Part shown: piece after piece, positions 9,382 to 51,847 of the stretch | Layout: each line of letters opens with the position of its first letter | Numbering within the stretch: position 1 is the stretch's first letter | NCBI RefSeq assembly: GCF_006345805.1 | Contig: NC_042997.1 | Coordinates: 37,758,001-37,822,000 of the forward strand | Length of the DNA: 64,000 nucleotides | Source of the DNA: Octopus sinensis | Lineage: Eukaryota | Direction of reading: 5' to 3' | Position numbers and translations under genes: made by a program | Notes under the pieces: model-generated | Database searches by the model: none | Told to the model about the DNA's origin: nothing | What the model saw: the letters and a program-made list of their open reading frames with translations, nothing else

Positions 9382-11699
9382 GTATATATAGTCTAACATC
9401 TCAACACCATCTATTGGTCTAACTGCTTTGCCTATTCTACACCCGCTTATCTCATCTATTCATAATGCCGTGACAGCTTTAATTTGGAGAAAAGGCCTTG
9501 ATGTTTTCATATTGAATATCTCCATTCTCTATAACTCCAACACCTGCTACCCCTTTTTCATTTTATCTCCTAAATCATGATGCGTAAATGGGAAGAGATT
9601 GTACTTTGGCAAAATCTACCTGCCTTTTCTGATTTTCCTGTGACTTTGTTCTCTTCAACATGTTCTTTTCTCCTCACGTCTCTCTCCGCTCATATATAAC
9701 GGTGACGCAAATCTGCAACTTTTTCTGCTAAACCTTAGCTTCTCACCATTCTCTCTCACTCACTACTCTCGTTCACTAATCCCCTGGTTACCTCAACCCA
9801 ATTTTCCCTTCATCTGCGATTTTCTACTGTCCTCCTATGTTTTGTTTTCTTAACATACCACTATAACCACTCCTCTACACCTCTGCACTGACTTATCACT
9901 CTGTAACTTACAATCGCATTCACACTACTTTATTTCTGTTTTTCGATGCTAATAATGCCATGATTCTTTCTTTCTCTCTCTGTCTCTCTCTGTATCTCTC
10001 TCTCTCTTTCTCTCTTTTTTCTCTCTCTCTCTCACTCACTCACCAATACACATGTAGTAACACTACAAAGAGCACCTTGAACACTTACAAACTGTCTGAG
10101 CCATACTGTCATAGCAGATGATCCGCACCAACCTATCACTGGGTCCACATGATCAACCCACAGCATTACCATTATATTTTGTTCCCTTCCCCGCCACATT
10201 AATCCCTGGCATTATTCTTCGCTTCCCTTCTTCTCTGTTTCCATTACTCATGCTCTACCTTCTTCTATTGGTTATTCCCCTCAAAATACATCTGTTCATT
10301 TCATCGTGGCATGCGATTTTCGCTTTGCAGGCTGTCTAGCGAGCCTCAACGGTACTGGTACTACTATATTTTGACAGAATACTTAAACACCGAAAAAACC
10401 TAAAACATTATTTGCTGCGTTTATTTGAGAAGAAGTGACATACAACCCCTTGAAAATGCTTTGGGTTTGAAGTAAATGCCTTTGAATTATTGAAGATTTA
10501 GTTCTTGTTCCTCTGTCACACCTTTCAATTATTCCCAGACACATTTGAACGAATACAAGCGAAATCATTTAACACAATTTCGTTTCACCGAACCAAGGTG
10601 TTTCAGCATATAAGCTATTAGCAGAAATTGAAATCAAATTTTAATGAAAGACACTTTTATTCTTTTTTTTCTTGGCAATGATCTGCAATCTTAACTAGCT
10701 TATCCATGAGCCATGTGACAAATGTGTAACAGATTTCATTGTTGTCTCTGAAAGAACCATAAAGAAAATAAGCGGCAAGTATTACTTCTCTGAAAACAAC
10801 TTTCAAAATAAATTGCCGAAACTTACAATAATTATAAGAGACATATATGCTGGAGAATCATGTGATTCAGTCGAAGGTCAGTAACGACCAGGATATTAAT
10901 ATATATGAATTAAATGAAGCATATGGGAGAGTAAGGGTAATTTTCAATACTCGTGAGATGTGTAGAAAACCACAATGTAGAACGTTGTCCTACGCGATGA
11001 TAAATTTTAGGCACCTTTCACAAACATAAGCGCTTGTATTTGCTCTATTCCATGCATCACCCTGAATTAGTAGTTCCAATGATGACCTTTGTATGGAGAA
11101 ATGAAAACAAGCATGTACAAGTGGACACCGTCGAACTAAAGATTCAAATATTTAACAGTTTCTCTGAAAATTGTCCAGATCTGTACAAATCACTCGTGGG
11201 CAATAGAAAACCCTTGGAGATGACAAGTAAAGGTTTTACAAATCAATTACATCATGTAAAAAGTAGACATTTATTTCAGGTGAATTAAAATTAAAATTGA
11301 ATATAAACATTTAGGATCTTTCACACAAAGTGTATAGAATGCATATTGACAGTCATATCGATGCTGCTTTAGAGAGTAAATTGTGAAATGTTACTTTGAT
11401 GTCAAATACACGTAGTAATAAATCTATCTCCAGCGGATTAAAAAAGAAGAAAAAGCTCACGTTCCATTTATATGAAACTAAAGGATTAGACTATGGCAGC
11501 ATTTACTAGATAAAATAGCGGGAGATAACCTACTTGCCCTGAAGACAATCGAGGAAATAAAGGATGATAAATTTGAAATAAATAAATAAATAAATAAAAT
11601 GAATACAAATAAAACTAACGCAGAGTAACAATTATTTGGAGACGATAAAAAAAACCACAATACAATTAAAGACATAGATACACGGTACAGCTGTTGATA

Positions 11700-12043
11700 A
11701 TGTTGCACAAAACTGTATGAAATATTAAAATTTCAAACACAAAAGCCGGAAAAATATTCACGAACGCAAATATGAACTGCAGTCAGTTAAATTTTTAATT
11801 ACTGTAACAAATGCAGAAATAGAAGAAATATATTTAGGTCAGACTGGAAATGCACTATCAGAACGTTCACGTGAGCACCGACGGCAAATCAGATATCCAG
11901 TTGTCTGTCAGTTACTTTTGAGTAATCATCTAGCAACATGTGGTCGGAAAATATTTATATTTCCATTCTACAAACTACACAGTCCAAATGAAATTGAGAG
12001 AAATAACTTTATTAATAAATTCCAACCCAAGCTAAATAAATAA
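11700..12043 (+). mobile_element. Penelope-like element remnant, GIY-YIG endonuclease C-terminus
   Basis: 11822-12043 reads EEIYLGQTGNALSERSREHRRQIRYPVVCQLLLSNHLATCGRKIFIFPFYKLHSPNEIERNNFINKFQPKLNK*. This has YIG-like YLGQTG, R..EH, H...C and a terminal FI..F.P.LN. An NMNCS motif lies upstream in a shifted frame. Confidence 0.8.
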
Positions 12044-12185
12044 TAATACTAATATTTAGAGGTACTATTTCTTCTTCTACGACCACTACAACTAACAACA
12101 ATAACAACAATACTAAAGGTGCTTGTGATGACAATAGCTATGTCAAGAGGAAAGTCAGTAAAAATCATCTTATTTTGGTGTTTAA

Positions 12186-17015: not shown

Positions 17016-17059
<44 letters not shown>

Positions 17060-17256
17060 TATTACATTATATAAAAGGGCTTAGTAAAATAAATTACTTT
17101 GCCGCATACTGAACTCATTAGAAATAGCAGCTAAAAAAACATTTATAAAACTATTTCTAATACTTAAAGAAAACCTCTCTCATATAGTGTTTGCTCAATT
17201 CAACTCACGGAAGTATGGGGGGTAGAGACATTAAAAAATCAGATGCAAAGGTTATT

Positions 17257-17309
17257 TGAGAACGTACGTTTCAAGATTAGTCAAACTCGACACTTCTATC
17301 ATCAGCTCA
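17257..17309 (-). ncRNA. Type I hammerhead ribozyme
   Basis: Minus strand: UGAG CUGAUGA U AGAAGUGUCGAGUUUGACUAAUCUU GAAA CGUAC GUU|CUCA. Stem I is UGAG/CUCA and stem III is the palindrome ACGUACGU. Confidence 0.8.
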
Positions 17310-17813
17310 GAACTCCCTGGTTTGGATTTGAAAACACTGAAAGTGGGAGCATACTCCTTCGGCCTCCTATCGCTTTTGAAGATCCGCTCGTAACTAACAG
17401 TGCCAATAAACCCAAATATGCAAGCGAAGAATTTCTGCTCTCCCCTTTCCACCAGCGTGGGTTAAAATCAGCAAACACTATGCTTTTTTCGGTAAAATCC
17501 GAGGCATTTAAATAGAGAGAGATGAATTATAATTTCAACAATTGAGGGTAAAATTAATTAATTAATCAATTTCACCAAGTGTTCAGTATGCAAAGGGACC
17601 ATTTAAGGCGAATTCAAATTATTACATTATATAAAAGGGCTTAGTAAAATAAATTACTTTGCCGCATACTGAACTCATTAGAAATAGCAGCTAAAAAAAC
17701 ATTATAAAACTATTTCTAATACTTAAGAAAACCTCTCTCATATAGTGTTTGCTCAATTCAACTCACGGAAGTATGGGGGGTAGAGACATTAAAAATCAGA
17801 TGCAAAGGTTATT

Positions 17814-17866
17814 TGAGAACGTACGTTTCAAGATTAGTCAAACTCGACACTTCTATCATCAGCTCA
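17814..17866 (-). ncRNA. Type I hammerhead ribozyme, identical second copy
   Basis: Same sequence as 17257-17309, offset by 557 bp. Confidence 0.8.
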
Positions 17867-18072
17867 GAACTCCCTGGTTTGGATTTGAAAACACTGAAAG
17901 TGGGAGCATACTCCTTCGGCCTCCTATCGCTATATATATATATATATATATTAAATTAGAGATAAAACAACTATTAGGCATATCAAACAATGAAAAACTT
18001 AAGCCAATACATAAAATATATATATATATAAAATATATATATATATATAAAATATATATATATTATATATAT

Positions 18073-20162: not shown

Positions 20163-22824
20163 TATACCTTCAGAACTGTTTTTACGGCTTTTATATATAA
20201 CATGCCTTAAAAGAAGAATGCAAATTTGATTTTTTTGCAAAAATTTTAATGGACTTTAAATTAGAATATATACATATGACATATGATCAATTTTATAGGA
20301 AAATGTGTGTATGCACACACATATACACAATACATACACACTCGTTCATATATATGTATATATATATAAGTATATATATATGTATATATGTATGCATGTA
20401 TGCATGTGTATACATACATATACATAGATATTTACATACATAATTATATAACTATATACCTGTAATATATTTATATATGAACACATATTATTATACATAT
20501 ATTTATACACATACATATATGTGTCTGTCTGCGGGAGCGTGTACAAATATATGTATGTATGTATGCCTGTATGTATGTCGATATATGCGTATGTATGCAT
20601 GTAAGTATGCATGTATGTACATATGCTGGTATGTAGGTAGGTAGCTAGCTAGCTAGGTATGTACTTATGTGTGTATGTACGTATGTATGTATGTATGTTT
20701 TTATGTATGTATGTATGTATGTATTTATGCTTATAAACGCATACTTAAACGGCAATGCATTCTTAGGGATGGAAATATTTCCTGTTGAGGAAAAATGCGA
20801 AAGAAATTGCTACGTAGCATTAATAGCCTATTAATCATAATTTAATGCTATTTATTTCTACTATTTCCAACGTCTGTTTTAATAATTCTAATATTGTATA
20901 TAGTAACTATTGATTCAATATAAATAGGGAATATTATTTTGTTTGCTTCATTGCCTCTTAAAAGGTATATTTACACACATACAAAAATGAAGATACATAA
21001 ATATGTTCGCTCATCCTATAAAGCTAACAAGATGTTAGATTTGAAGAAAAATATTTATCAGCACACACGACATTGATTTATATGAATTAGCATTTAACGT
21101 ATCGATTTTCCCTTCTGCCTGATACTGTAGAGATATATTTTATATCAGAAAGCGACGTAGACGAACAAAAGCTGACTTAATAGTATAATTCATCATACTT
21201 GTTCAACAAACACAAAGTAACAACACCTTATGAAAGGAAAACGACTGTAGAATCATTACATCTTATCCTTCTCAAAGTACGAGGTGTATACGGACAGAGA
21301 AATTGAAGCTGGATAATGAAACCCATAGAGAAAACGAATTTTAAAGATATTTTGCCAATAAACTGGGAATATAAATCTCAACCCAGCAAAGGTCTATTCG
21401 ATTTGAGATCTTGAGATATGTGCTGTAACTGCGACTGAGAAATGTTCTGTAACTATGCGGCTGATGTTAGTTAGCTTTCAAAGTCATATTGAGTGGTTTG
21501 AGTATCGCTGAATGCATATATTGATGTAGTTATTCAAAACACATGCACGTGATACATTCTTGTTTCACTTTCTTATTCATCAACAATATTAAATGTGTTT
21601 ATTATAGTATCCGGTGTTGGTGCAGCACAGCTAAATGAACGGGAATGTGAGAATATTAGTGGTTTTGGCATAATATTATTACTACCGCTGTCTGAGACAG
21701 TTCTCCGTCAGTATTTTACCTTGGCTATATATTTTACAGCGAAAAATATCTACTGATTAATTGTTTCAAAATTTTAATATTGAGAAGCCTAAATGACCTA
21801 ATTTGTAAACGATTTATATCATAATTGAATATAATACCTAATTACACATTGAGCTTAAGATCTAAAGAAATTTTTTTGTTAAATATTTTGTAAAATCATC
21901 TAAAGTAAATATTCTATATGTGCCAGTCTACATACTTACAAATATTGAAAGTGGATCGTAAATTTTAAGATCAAGAGTTAGTCGTAAGTATTTTGGAAAA
22001 TCTTTCATTACAATTTCTAACCTTGCAATGGCAATTAATATAATAGATGCAGGGAGTGTACGAATTTGGGTGTACGAATTGCAGTTAGAAAACTTGATGA
22101 TTAAAATCGGTACCACATGGGGCTTTTTCTATATTTGGCGCCGTTAAAAGAAGAAAGGAGCATATGGAACTTTTAATGTCAGATGTCTGTGGAAACAAAC
22201 TATTTGAAAATTATTTTGACAAACGTATGTCATTTTATATATTTTTGTCTTGCTGATGCGAAAAGCTTTTACCTATTACCTAAGATTTTCTCACAAATTA
22301 AAGTTAACGATATCATTATTTGTAATTCAACGTGTTGTATGATGAAATGTTAGTACCAGGAAGGAATTATGTACTTCATCTAACAAAATACAATTGAATG
22401 TGAGAAAATAGATTTTAACAAAGGGTTCTATTCATTTTCTAGGTTTATATCGCTTGTTCGTTTATTTACCATGAAAGAAACTCTATTATAAATACCACCG
22501 TAAAGTCTGTTTTAGCAGAACATCCACGTTTAAGTGGGAATAAATATTACCACTTGGTATTAATACTGCCTCTGTCGCTAATATATCTTTTTTAACAAGT
22601 GAACTGGCTAATCGCAATACTAGTGCCTGTTCTGGTAATGATTTCCTATATATCACTAGCGAGGAGATAAGTCGCTAGCGGTCGAACATCCATCAGCGAT
22701 GAGATTAAGGAAGATCGATATGTGTCATAGTGGTCTCGGCGCTGAGGTTGGTGGTGATTTATCTCCCCGTGAGTGATATAAAGAAGCAAGCATGCATTCT
22801 GCACCAAAACCTGTATAACAGTTT

Positions 22825-23211
22825 GTGGAGGCGCAATGGCCCAGTGGTTAGGGCAGCGGGCTCGCGGTCTTAGGATCGCGGTTTCGATTCCCAGACCGGG
22901 CGTTGAGAGTGTTTATTGAGCGAAAACACCTAAAGCTCCACGACGCTCCGGCAGGGATGGTGGTGATCCCTGCTATACTCTTTCACCACAACTTTCTCTC
23001 ACTCTTACTTCCTGTTTCTGTTGTACCTGTATTTCAAAGGGCCGGCCTTGTCACTCTCTGTGTCACGCTGAATATCCCCGAGAACTACGTTAAGGGTGCA
23101 CGTGTCTGTGGAGTGCTCAGCCACTTACACGTTAATTTCACGAGCAGGGTGTTCCGTTGATCGGATCAACCGAAACCCTCGTCGACGGAACCGACGGAGT
23201 GCTTCCATCCC
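22825..23211 (+). mobile_element. tRNA-derived SINE, family C, full length with 10-bp TSD
   Basis: A-box TGGCCCAGTGG, B-box-like GGTTTCGATTCC and a tRNA-like head. TSD ATAACAGTTT at 22815-22824 and 23212-23221. Confidence 0.9.
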
Positions 23212-23706
23212 ATAACAGTTTATTTTATAATAAATACGGCAGTAATTATTTTCTTACTCTTCGAATTGTGTCCCTACACCTTACAAGAACAAATACTGTA
23301 GACTTTTTGACTTCAGTGTATATTTTGTTCATTGTCTTAATTCCTCAACACAAAGTAGGCAGGCCTTATGGGGAGCCCACTTCTGATCTTGGTCTCCTAA
23401 TTTCACCCCGAAAGGAGGCCGAGTAACAGTTTTTGACAAATTTAGTAATGTTTCTCCGAAGCTTCTTAGTCATACATTTGTCACAAATGAAGCAAAATTT
23501 ATCCGTGCTTGCTGTGTATCATCTACAAGACGTCTTTCTTTGAAATGAGGTGGAGGTCATTAAGGAAAGAGGAAGAAGAATCTTTTTTTAACAGCGTATA
23601 TTTGATTTACCATCAAAATGTACACATACAATTAAAGAAGCATGTGACTACCCGAGGAGTTCATCACCACATCTTTATTGGGTCATATTCTACATTAAAA
23701 TGTAGC

Positions 23707-24109
23707 GTGTGGTAAGTAGCTTGCTAACCAACCACATGGTTCCGGGTTCAGTCCCACTGCGTGGCATGTTGGGCAAGTGTCTTCTGCTATAGCCCCGGGC
23801 TGATCAATGCCTTGTGAGTGGATTTGGTAGACGGAAACTGAAAGAAGCCTGTCGTATATATGTATATATATATATATATAAGTGTGTGTGTATATATTTC
23901 TGTGTCTGTGTTTTGTCCCCCTAGCATTGCTTGACAACCGATGCTGGTGTGTTTACGTCCCCGTCACTTAGCGGTTCGGCAAAAGAGACCGATAGAATAA
24001 GTACTGGGCTTACAAAGAATAAGTGCCAGGGTCGATTTGCTCGACTAAAGGCGGTGCTCCAGCATGGCCGCAATCAAATGACTGAAACAAGTAAAAGAGT
24101 AAAAGAGTA
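23707..24109 (+). mobile_element. SINE family B
   Basis: Matches the other family B copies and ends in the GTAAAAGAGTAAAAGAG tail. Confidence 0.9.
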
Positions 24110-24929
24110 TATGATCCAGCAAAATGTAACATGATACAATAAAACAATGCTTGTAGCATATATCAGGAAAACTCTTGACGAAATAAGTGAATTAAAAAAA
24201 TTTTAAAGAAAGGTTTCGGAGGGGTGATGCATACCTTGCGCGCAAACAAGGGTAAAATATCTAATTTTATTAAAAATAATCTCAGACGAATTCATATTTC
24301 AACGAAATTACATCAAGAGTCATTTCCCTTGATTATCGTTCATGCATGTATAATAACAACAACATCAACGAAAAATAACATTTTGGTTCACCCGCCCGCC
24401 AGTTTTGAAGATAAATCAAAGCAAAATTTAACGACTTTGAGCCACTCACCCAAAGAGTATTTCTGCCAAATTTGGGGAAAATCGTTTCAGTCATTTTCCA
24501 GTACATTTGCAAATAGAAAAGCAAACAGACAAAGACGAGCGACTACACTCACACTGCTTCGCTTACTCGTGCAGGGTTAACAATGGCTTTTCACATAAGC
24601 AACGTGACCTTGTAAAGCACCTCTGCTTTGTACAACACATGCGGTTCACTAAAGCTAATACACATTTGTATATAGCTGAAGCAGTCTCAGCATTCCCAGG
24701 TGCTTATTTTTAAACTCACGCCTGTTATTTATAATGCAAATAGTTTATTTAAATGTGGCAATTAATAGTAATAGTGAAAGACAATATTCAAATTTGGGTA
24801 GAATGGTAAAATGCAATAAGAGATTTTGTGAAATATACTCAGTGGTTCCGCGGACCCCTGGGATCCCGGAAGCCCTGGAGGTCCTCAAAAGTAGAACGGA
24901 GGGGGGGCGTGAACTAAATTCAAAATGTC

Positions 24930-25331
24930 ATGTATAGCCTTATGTGATACATACGGAGTCGAGTTTCTGGGTGGTTACCCGTCCTCAGCGTGTTTTAATC
25001 ACATGCTAGTGATGAAAAGTCACTCCACTTGCAAATACTATAAACGTATGTCATTTTATATATTTTTGTCTTGCTGATGCGAAAAGCTTTTACCTATTAC
25101 CTAAGATTTTCTCACAAATTAAAGTTAACGATATCATTATTTGTAATTCAACGTGTTGTATGATGAAATGTTAGTACCAGGAAGGAATTATGTACTTCAT
25201 CTAACAAAATACAATTGAATGTATAGCCTTATGTGATACATACGGAGTCGAGTTTCTGGGTGGTAACCCGTCCTCAGCGTGTTTTAATCACATGCTAGTG
25301 ATGAAAAGTCACTCCACTTGCAAATACTATA
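24930..25331 (+). repeat. 113-bp direct duplication flanking a 181-bp copy of 22221-22401
   Basis: 24930-25042 matches 25219-25331 with 1 mismatch. 25042-25222 matches 22221-22401. Confidence 0.92.
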
Positions 25332-35605: not shown

Positions 35606-35607
<2 letters not shown>

Positions 35608-36090
35608 TAAAAATAAGGGTGTCTGAGAGACACCAACATGCCGAAATAGCAGTCTAATTCCTGACTCTAAAAACCACGTTAAATGTTCATATCGCACGAT
35701 GAGATAAGACAGAGGGACAAAATAGACTAGAAAAAGATATTACCGAATAATTCAAGATCCTGGATTTCTAGCTTTGCTTTAAATAAGCTTTGCCGTCATC
35801 AGTTGAATATATCAGAGCACATAAATACATATATGTATATACAGAACAAACGTTATACTTACATATACGAACGTCCATACATACATATATATTCACGTAT
35901 GTACAAGGCCAGTTTAAATTGCCCGCCAAACACCTCATAAGCAAGATATGGTCAACATAAACATCACAGTGAATATAGTGACGAATTATATAAATTTGTA
36001 AATAAGGATAATATCGATATTTAAATGTTGATATTATCAAGTGGCCAGCATGGGAAAAAATACCATACAATGGTAATAATTTTTTACAAC
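35606..36090 (-). mobile_element. (TA)n-embedded hammerhead element, family H3
   Basis: Bounded by (TA)n on both sides, with a homologue at 6451-6820 and a hammerhead at 35750-35808. Confidence 0.75.
35750..35808 (-). ncRNA. Type I hammerhead ribozyme
   Basis: Minus strand: AUUCAA CUGAUGA C GGC-AAAGCUUAUUUAAAGCAAA-GCU A GAAA UCCAGG AUC|UUGAAU. Stem I is 6 bp (AUUCAA/UUGAAU) and stem III is UCC/GGA. Confidence 0.8.
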
Positions 36091-36103
36091 TATATATATA
36101 TAT

Positions 36104-36680
36104 ATACAAAATTTAGAGGAATGACCACTAACAGTGGACAGCTTGTATGATAGATATAGACGTCAAACTCGCTATTTACCACGAAGAATCTGTTTCAGCA
36201 AAAACCAAAGTTTAAAATAAGACAAATGAAAATATTAGAAAAATTTTTAAAAAAACTATTACCTACGTACTAATTAGTTTCACTTGTTAATATTTACGTA
36301 TATGGATACGTAAACATCTGCAAGATCATCAGCGTAGTCTGTGGTTAACGAAATACAATTTCCAGAACTAGATACAGGGCGCTCGACCGAAATCCAGCAT
36401 GTATAAACGCTACAAATTATATTTATGTGTATCCTTCAAATGCCTTCACTTTGGCGCGCTGAGATCGGAAATTACTCTGCAGTTAAAAAACTACAGCAGT
36501 TAATTTACCAGCTAGAGAACATTTTTTTATTTAAAAATTAAATAAGGGTAGAAATTGATATTAATCAATTAAAACCAGTGGCCTAGCATATTTTTTTTAA
36601 AATCCGAAGATTAAAAGTTTTATACATACAAAATTTAGAGGAATGACCACTAATAGTGGACAGCCTGTATGCTAGATATA
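36104..36680 (-). mobile_element. Retrozyme-like element: 522-bp monomer plus 55-bp terminal redundancy
   Basis: Direct repeats at 36104-36158 and 36626-36680 (3 mismatches), with an internal hammerhead. Confidence 0.8.
36263..36337 (-). ncRNA. Type I hammerhead ribozyme
   Basis: Minus strand: CUACG CUGAUGA U CUUG..AUGUUUACGUAU-CCAU-AUACGUAAAUAU..CAAG U GAAA CUAAUUA GUA|CGUAG. It has a perfect 5-bp stem I, a long stem II and a palindromic stem III. Confidence 0.88.
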
Positions 36681-36711
36681 TACATGCTTGTGTATGTGTG
36701 TGTTTATGTGC

Positions 36712-50625: not shown

Positions 50626-50663
<38 letters not shown>

Positions 50664-51048
50664 CAAACGAATATAGACACAATCTTCCCCTCACAATCCA
50701 AATATCATTTGGACAATGCAACAGATATGAGGCTTCTTGATTTAGTAAATAAAAAATGATGCATTGATGCTTTATGCACACACACACATACACACACACA
50801 CATACACACACACACATACACACACACACATACAGGTATGTATATGCATATGTGTGTGTGGGTGAGTGTGAGTGTGTGTGTATGTGTGTCATCATATATA
50901 TGCATACATATATATGTATATAGATATGCGTATATATTTACCTCATTATATATATTGTATATTACAAGTGTGTATGTATATGTATATGTATATATATATG
51001 AAAAAACAAGTAAAAAATAGAAAATGCTAAAATAATTTTATAGTGAAC

Positions 51049-51094
51049 ATTTCAGTACCGGTTTCGGTCATTTTGAGACCTTTTCAACTGTAAC
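51049..51094 (-). ncRNA. Type I hammerhead ribozyme, U3-A8 core variant
   Basis: Minus strand: GUUACAG UUGAAAA GGUC-UCAAAAU-GACC GAAA CCG GUA|CUGAAAU. Stem II is perfect and stem III is the palindrome ACCGGU. Confidence 0.75.
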
Positions 51095-51250
51095 GATTAA
51101 ATAATTAAATTTAGAAAAATTAGAAGAAAAGTTTTTTTAAAAGAATATTTCTATAGTAGTGTTCAGATTTAAGTGGCATTCTGCCTTTCTCTGACTCCCT
51201 TGTTTGCACTTGTGTGTTCGAGGTATATATATACGTTCATTACATATCAT

Positions 51251-51285
<35 letters not shown>

Positions 51286-51650
51286 TGTTCAAACGAATAT
51301 AGACACAATCTTCCCCTCACAATCCAAATATCATTTGGACAATGCAACAGATATGAGGCTTCTTGATTTAGTAAATAAAAAATGATGCATTGATGCTTTA
51401 TGCACACACACACATACACACACACACACACATACAGGTATGTATATGCATATGTGTGTGTGGGTGAGTGTGAGTGTGTGTGTATGTGTGTCATCATATA
51501 TATGCATACATATATATGTATATAGATATGCGTATATATTTACCTCATTATATATATTGTATATTACAAGTGTGTATGTATATGTATATGTATATATATA
51601 TGAAAAAACAAGTAAAAAATAGAAAATGCTAAAATAATTTTATAGTGAAC

Positions 51651-51696
51651 ATTTCAGTACCGGTTTCGGTCATTTTGAGACCTTTTCAACTGTAAC
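51651..51696 (-). ncRNA. Second copy of the U3-A8 hammerhead
   Basis: Identical to 51049-51094, offset by 602 bp. Confidence 0.75.
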
Positions 51697-51847
51697 GATT
51701 AAATAATTAAATTTAGAAAAATTAGAAGAAAAGTTTTTTTAAAAGAATATTTCTATAGTAGTGTTCAGATTTAAGTGGCATTCTGCCTTTCTCTGACTCC
51801 CTTGTTTGCACTTGTGTGTTCGAGGTATATATATACGTTCATTACAT

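Follow-up and report, generated by a model that had tools for sequence, protein, structure and literature searches.

A 577-bp insertion on Octopus sinensis contig NC_042997.1 comprises a 522-bp unit followed by a 55-bp re-reading of the unit's own start, with a hammerhead ribozyme motif lying inside the unit, and it raises the question of what kind of RNA was copied, and by which enzyme, to leave slightly more than one unit in the genome. The initial annotation had proposed that a reverse transcriptase (RT) ran more than once around a circular RNA. We examined this proposal in a window of 64,000 nucleotides (positions 37,758,001 to 37,822,000, forward strand) and among copies of the same repeat in the searched genome (G000).

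Layout of the insertion and its hammerhead motif

The structure described in the initial annotation was recovered. Direct repeats at 36104-36158 and 36626-36680 lie 522 bp apart and align at 93.3% over 60 columns (BLAST, E 1e-20), with 3 differences in 53 scored columns across the 55-bp pair, and the hammerhead with its GUA cut lies inside the unit at 36263-36337, on the minus strand, which the annotation had left unstated. The minus strand is the RNA sense of the copy, with a truncated 5' end at 36680 and a 3' end at a site termed A (36104). Unit positions are numbered in RNA sense from 36680 as position 1, which places the hammerhead cut after position 413. The unit is 31% GC and holds no stop-to-stop open reading frame (ORF) of at least 90 aa inside 36104..36680. 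The 5' truncation falls at position 1, and there a TATAT belonging to the unit abuts the TA target, so that the 36626..36680 repeat meets its flank through TATAT microhomology, and a short TA run is also found at the 5' junction (36681-36684). The features of the insertion are as follows.

36104..36680, minus strand: whole insertion, 577 bp, equal to 1.1 units of a 522-bp non-coding repeat
36626..36680, minus strand: 5' copy of the 55-bp redundancy, monomer positions 1-55, putatively the second lap of RT
36104..36158, minus strand: 3' copy of the 55-bp redundancy, ending at fixed site A, the family 3' end in 52/98 arms
36534..36625, minus strand: "tail" between sites A and B, about 90 nt, internal in this copy
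36536-36534, minus strand: site B, the family's second fixed 3' end, 34/98 arms
36647..36659, minus strand: small hairpin (predicted fold) about 20-30 nt upstream of site A, with a second copy at 36125-36137
36553..36570, minus strand: AU hairpin (predicted fold) directly upstream of site B
36092..36103, no strand: (TA)n target at the 3' junction, read from the sequence
36263..36337, minus strand: type I minimal hammerhead, GUA cut between 36268 and 36267
36337-36333/36267-36263, minus strand: helix I, CUACG/CGUAG, 5 pairs
36332-36326, minus strand: CUGAUGA core (motif scan)
36325/36282, minus strand: U·U next to the core (motif scan)
36324-36283, minus strand: helix II, a long interrupted hairpin of 17 pairs (motif scan)
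36281-36278, minus strand: GAAA core (motif scan)
36277-36270, minus strand: helix III palindrome CUAAUUAG, C-UAAUUA-G, dimer type

The hammerhead at 36263-36337 was the sole match in the window under a strict motif scan, while a relaxed scan returned six hammerhead motifs in four elements and Rfam at its gathering score gave no match anywhere in the window. Among family copies, N7 is the only core position that commonly varies, and the 5' core is damaged in 9 of the 57 copies examined. Helix I is represented in 140 copies by a variable pair (U-A in 107, C-G in 23, U·G in 5, broken in 4, gapped in 1), and 99% of helix cells pair in a 12-copy alignment. The hammerhead thus appears to be under constraint, which we count in favour of the reading preferred below; the helix I covariation lends this only modest support because it reflects one compensatory event in which both changes are CpG-type transitions. 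A lower substitution rate in the 5' core (1.8% vs 4.8%) was left unused, since some loci had been chosen by ribozyme similarity.

Two properties of the motif bear on its activity. The G10.1-C11.1 pair, highly conserved in the minimal hammerheads of Penelope-like elements (PLEs) according to PMC4209133, is replaced by U·U in 41 of the 44 strictly parsed copies among the 57 examined, and the minimum-energy fold predicted for the lone hammerhead RNA (-22.7 kcal/mol, z -3.7) contains helices I and II, yet has CUGAU paired to AUUAG, which blocks the core. Given the U·U at 10.1/11.1 and a monomer predicted to fold with a blocked core, cleavage may be poor. Animal type I ribozymes are described as working in a dimer mode through helix III (PMC4209133); for the CUAAUUAG palindrome an intermolecular duplex of -11 kcal/mol is predicted, through which two hammerhead copies can pair in the model. 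The copy in the window, having a single ribozyme, is likely a dead end that cannot release unit-length RNA.

Family ends and the Penelope-like footprint

The genome contains 199 exact matches to a 21-nt stretch of the ribozyme core (control, 0) and 216 to a 30-nt stretch of the tail, and similarity searches gave 856-2712 first-look candidates, which makes this small non-coding repeat a dispersed and ageing family with roughly two hundred copies or more. Ends were mapped on the first 100 of the 199 core matches in genome order, a choice made against length bias. These correspond to 94 loci; with L129 left out as part of the same cluster as L128, they provided 98 anchored arms, one of them a segmental duplicate. 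Arm spans have a median of 383 and a maximum of 967, and 29/98 arms exceed one unit, by 2-445 bp.

The 3' ends of these arms fall at site A (about position 55) in 52 cases, at site B (about position 145) in 34 and elsewhere in 12. TA-rich DNA follows 38/52 of the A ends and 29/34 of the B ends (67/86), and public contigs have loose (TA)n ends at 36534/36541 (site B) and 36621 (site A). In contrast to these two fixed sites some 90 nt apart, the 5' ends are variable; they are frequent at the 36647..36659 hairpin (14/198 5' ends in monomer bin 21-40). None of the 98 3' ends and none of the 98 5' ends lies within 10 nt of the hammerhead cut.

This distribution separates the components of the original proposal. 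Circular permutation of the copy ends, expected under it, fails on the 3' side, where 86/98 arms end at two fixed sites, and free permutation of both ends is rejected. Only the 5' end varies, and variable redundancy therefore fits 5' truncation on any more-than-unit template, circular or tandem-linear. Reading past one unit was borne out, and a circle is favoured on evidence given below; the variable redundancy cited for it is not specific to a circle. The differing redundancies themselves (55, about 180 and 319 bp) are real, and the longest, measured here as 318 bp, is of the same kind as the 55-bp one, whereas the 181-bp pair (22221-22401/25042-25222) is not directly comparable, since by eye it looks like part of a split dimer.

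Arms also occur head to head. Among 45 such rows, both ends fall at A or B in 23, and at least one arm ends elsewhere in the other 22. The 23 resolved pairs comprise 22 A/B (one a segmental duplicate), one A/A and no B/B, against an expected A/B share of 0.47 calculated from solo arms (27 A, 17 B; p ~1e-6). The first 30 of the 216 tail matches gave 21 rows, with 14 A/B, 2 B/B and 5 unresolved, in a set that cannot show A/A and has four loci in common with the core-match set. Fold-back self-priming was rejected as a general source of the inverted arms: in 12/22 A/B rows it is the A arm that extends further upstream, indicating that each DNA end was likely primed separately, and at L107 and L179 the arms do not overlap. 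In the short head-to-head insertions L216, L221, L230, L233, L234 and L235, the 5' ends of the two arms often lie near the same unit coordinate (512/512, 491/491).

PLEs are reported to leave partial tandems and an inverted truncated arm, with a 30-40-bp tail often at only one end and a bias towards (TA)n (PMC8557442, PMC3846280). In vitro work on one PLE protein, a predicted dimer, showed that it cleaves both strands of AT-rich DNA and begins cDNA synthesis at two internal positions, and these define the tail (PMC11167929). The two fixed 3' ends, the A/B pairs and the (TA)n target of the octopus family are this PLE tail and inversion footprint, which the initial annotation had not recognised and which identifies the copy in the window as probably a non-autonomous, PLE-mobilised monomer of retrozyme type. 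A PLE RT/endonuclease acting in trans would nick (TA)n and start cDNA internally at A or B, with one site used per DNA end when both ends prime.

The RNA template

The hammerhead cut is crossed by 13/45 tail-anchored arms and only 1/45 stops near it; arms thus cross the cut freely, and cleaved linear RNA is not a simple template. To compare the repeats within over-length copies, we took 40 arms from all searches with overlaps of more than 30 bp, leaving out duplicates, indel zones and edges. Twin repeats differ at 6.4% of positions (173/2695), compared to 9.9% between copies, and they agree at 151/159 subfamily-diagnostic sites. By half of the 6.4% figure, the copy in the window is ageing, with about 3% change per repeat since insertion. 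No polarity recurs, any given difference between 5' and 3' repeats being found in at most 3/22 copies. The agreement implies that both repeats were alike at insertion and that lineages went through bottlenecks of a single unit, something that a circular template provides automatically.

Termination provides a second line of evidence, with 60 stops in 14114 nt of the first lap compared to 25 in 2316 nt after it (ratio 2.5, p=2e-4). A rise after one unit is as expected if RT must displace its own cDNA. The effect is seen for A arms (p=0.001) and is weak for B arms (p=0.054), and it is confounded by the predicted hairpins upstream of A and B. A shared non-family 5' flank was sought among 52 arms longer than one unit, and none was found. 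The folding score of the whole unit (z -3.45) was not taken as evidence for a circle.

On these sequence comparisons a circular template is favoured, with somewhat better than even confidence. In the corresponding scheme, transcripts of a master locus with two ribozymes would be cleaved at both of them, probably by ribozymes acting as a dimer, and the product would be ligated to give the template, a likely circular RNA of 522-534 nt. For the copy in the window, RT would have begun at A, completed one full lap and fallen off 55 nt into the second. We consider it reasonably probable that this is a 5'-truncated 1.1-unit copy put into (TA)n by a trans-acting PLE enzyme working on such an RNA. The two fixed 3' ends, variable 5' ends, A/B pairs, read-through of the ribozyme site and seamless unit junctions are seen directly. 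A more specific version, in which a PLE protein dimer loads on one ribozyme-made circle at two sites, uses A to prime one DNA end and B to prime the other, and tends to stall on meeting its own cDNA after one lap, is put forward tentatively, as a possibility that falls somewhat short of even odds.

The strongest competitor keeps the PLE-driven insertion and replaces the circle with linear RNA, transcribed from a tandem (pLTR-like) master of at least two units and left uncleaved, the 55 bp being plain 5' truncation and the ribozyme having no part in copying. All end statistics (A/B, the TA target, read-through of the cut) fit it equally, a 1.85-unit copy exists (L202), and for the single PLE studied in vitro, uncleaved, unprocessed RNA is reported as the dominant substrate, with the ribozyme dispensable and no RNA-seq ends at the cut (PMC11167929), which counts against the circle. 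A mutation in one unit of the master should, however, sit in one repeat only, yet the twins agree at nearly all diagnostic sites. Moreover, over-length arms have no common non-family 5' flank, the rise in termination comes one unit after the start of each individual arm, and arrays of three or more cores were absent among the 100 listed of the 199 matches, with unassembled arrays possible. Two complete ribozyme cores are present in just 2/261 family arms, from which masters would be rare or unassembled. We regard a tandem transcript as unlikely, while giving it appreciable weight.

Alternatively, the RNA could be a ribozyme-cut linear monomer, with RT reaching the 5' end and then jumping to the 3' end of either that monomer or a different one, making a seamless product like that of a circle. 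This would explain seamless junctions and common variants without ligation, and template jumps have been invoked for PLEs (PMC3846280). Failed jumps should nevertheless pile up 5' ends at position 414, where 0/98 core-anchored arms end (a count informative in lap two alone), and among tail-anchored arms just one of 45 ends there while 13 cross, so that we judge end-to-end jumping improbable. Finally, a target-site duplication, which the initial annotation had rightly discounted, or a local DNA-level tandem duplication without retrotransposition, is effectively refuted, even though both repeat copies adjoin microsatellites, which make the empty site unreadable: the 55 bp are family positions 1-55, found on many contigs with seamless continuation on both sides, and 29/98 arms have such overlaps with the same fixed 3' ends. 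As family rather than target sequence, the redundancy owes its length to the 5' stop point.

Related elements and known systems

Other elements of the window carry related features. Directly downstream of the insertion, 35607-36092 (minus strand) is a copy of exactly one unit (about 484 bp) from a sister hammerhead family, with its ribozyme at 35748-35810; the copy makes a full round from that family's own site A back to it, overlapping by 3 letters. For this sister family 2362 candidates were counted, and its second 3' end lies about 106 nt further along. At 17057-17931 (minus strand), a 560-bp unit has a 318-bp redundancy (17057-17374/17617-17931, 99% identical) and two hammerheads with U·U beside the core, ends in (TA)n, and is flanked by a 54-bp inverted repeat (16894-16947/17952-18005). 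Being younger and having two ribozymes, it is a better master candidate than the 36104..36680 copy. The element at 22221-25331 (minus strand) is built from a 289-bp hammerhead unit and appears to be a dimer interrupted by 2.5 kb of inserted DNA; a portion of the element is 70% like L253:1034-1111, a locus with a PLE-like ORF (E 4e-5). A broken PLE remnant lies at about 10200-12046 (plus strand), its C-terminal endonuclease part 75% identical to an intact 775-aa RT+GIY-YIG ORF elsewhere in the genome. At 50660-51223 and 51286-51825, repeats of 117 and 181 bp, perfectly identical and spaced about 600 bp apart among microsatellites, represent a recent duplication or an assembly artefact.

Candidate partners were sought in the same genome. 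The unit contains no RT+GIY-YIG ORF, and tblastn matches in five family loci are not continuous with an arm. The 775-aa RT+GIY-YIG lineage is intact, with RVT_1 below and GIY-YIG above the Pfam cut-off; a second lineage, with a 717-aa ORF and no Pfam match at E 0.01, is presumably PLE-like, judging by its motifs. No DNA similarity to the unit was found in 60 PLE-like loci from both lineages, a small part of the 7557 and 6239 candidates. The sole match, L240, was rejected as a partner, being a family copy that lies next to a fragment. Two near-identical 717-aa ORF elements (L250/L251, minus strand) have pLTR-like repeats with 3' ends about 70 nt apart, the shorter of which reads TTGTAT before (TA)n, as at the family's site A, in these two copies only. 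Among public sequence runs, no holder of the family is recorded as RNA and contigs alone were found; five runs that are presumed to be RNA contain family pieces as contigs, which cannot show strand, ends or circles.

Non-LTR retrozymes are short non-coding units that carry type I hammerheads; their circular RNAs have been shown in coral, mussel and axolotl, and PLEs have been put forward as what probably mobilises them (PMC7229834). Li, Clavereau and Pollet 2026 (bioRxiv 10.64898/2026.07.22.740005) tie retrozymes to PLE pLTRs and also give counts of solo monomers. Cervera and de la Pena suggested in 2014 that a circle is copied over more than one unit (PMC4209133), and the circular-template model is itself not new (PMC4209133, PMC7229834); both the spreading enzyme and the circular template are stated to be open in PMC7229834 and bioRxiv 10.64898/2026.07.22.740005. 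Among the papers listed by a literature search, none was recognised from its title and abstract opening as dealing with the present family, which is no proof of its absence from print.

The family ties a retrozyme-type unit to a PLE insertion footprint and yields predictions that can be counted: cDNA should start at A and B, each DNA end should use just one of the two sites, and RT should stall after one lap. If two-site loading on a circle is true, A/B pairing and the one-lap termination rise would be genome-scale evidence that animal retrozymes are copied from circles, perhaps PLE pseudo-LTRs as well, and would name exact RNA sites for in vitro tests. These two observations are the parts most worth carrying forward, and they are best tested on younger families.

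Like the non-LTR retrozymes of metazoans (Cervera and de la Pena 2020, PMC7229834; bioRxiv 10.64898/2026.07.22.740005), the family has a non-coding, low-GC unit within the reported 51-972 bp, a type I hammerhead, dispersed monomers and PLEs in the same genome, and a circular intermediate copied by a PLE RT is proposed there too. It differs from them in that multimers are nearly absent; in addition, two fixed ends and A/B pairing are mapped here, while insertion ends are unmapped in the available parts of the retrozyme sources. Unlike an active retrozyme, the copy in the window has one ribozyme and counts as a "monomer" under the two-motif rule of Li and colleagues; it would be like a retrozyme progeny copy, having one ribozyme where an active element has two. 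Its motif resembles PLE minimal hammerheads (PMC4209133) in being type I, with a 5-bp helix I, a long helix II and a tiny palindromic helix III for dimer formation, and departs from them in having U·U for G10.1-C11.1 and a helix II that is a 17-pair interrupted hairpin. With EN+ PLEs (PMC8557442, PMC11167929, PMC3846280), the family shares the partial tandem, truncated 5' ends, a tail that separates two 3' ends, a head-to-head inverted arm with the tail at only one end, the (TA)n target and a ribozyme upstream of the initiation sites. It differs from them in that no sequence link to a coding PLE was found, its unit has no ORF, and its tail measures about 90 nt rather than 30-40.
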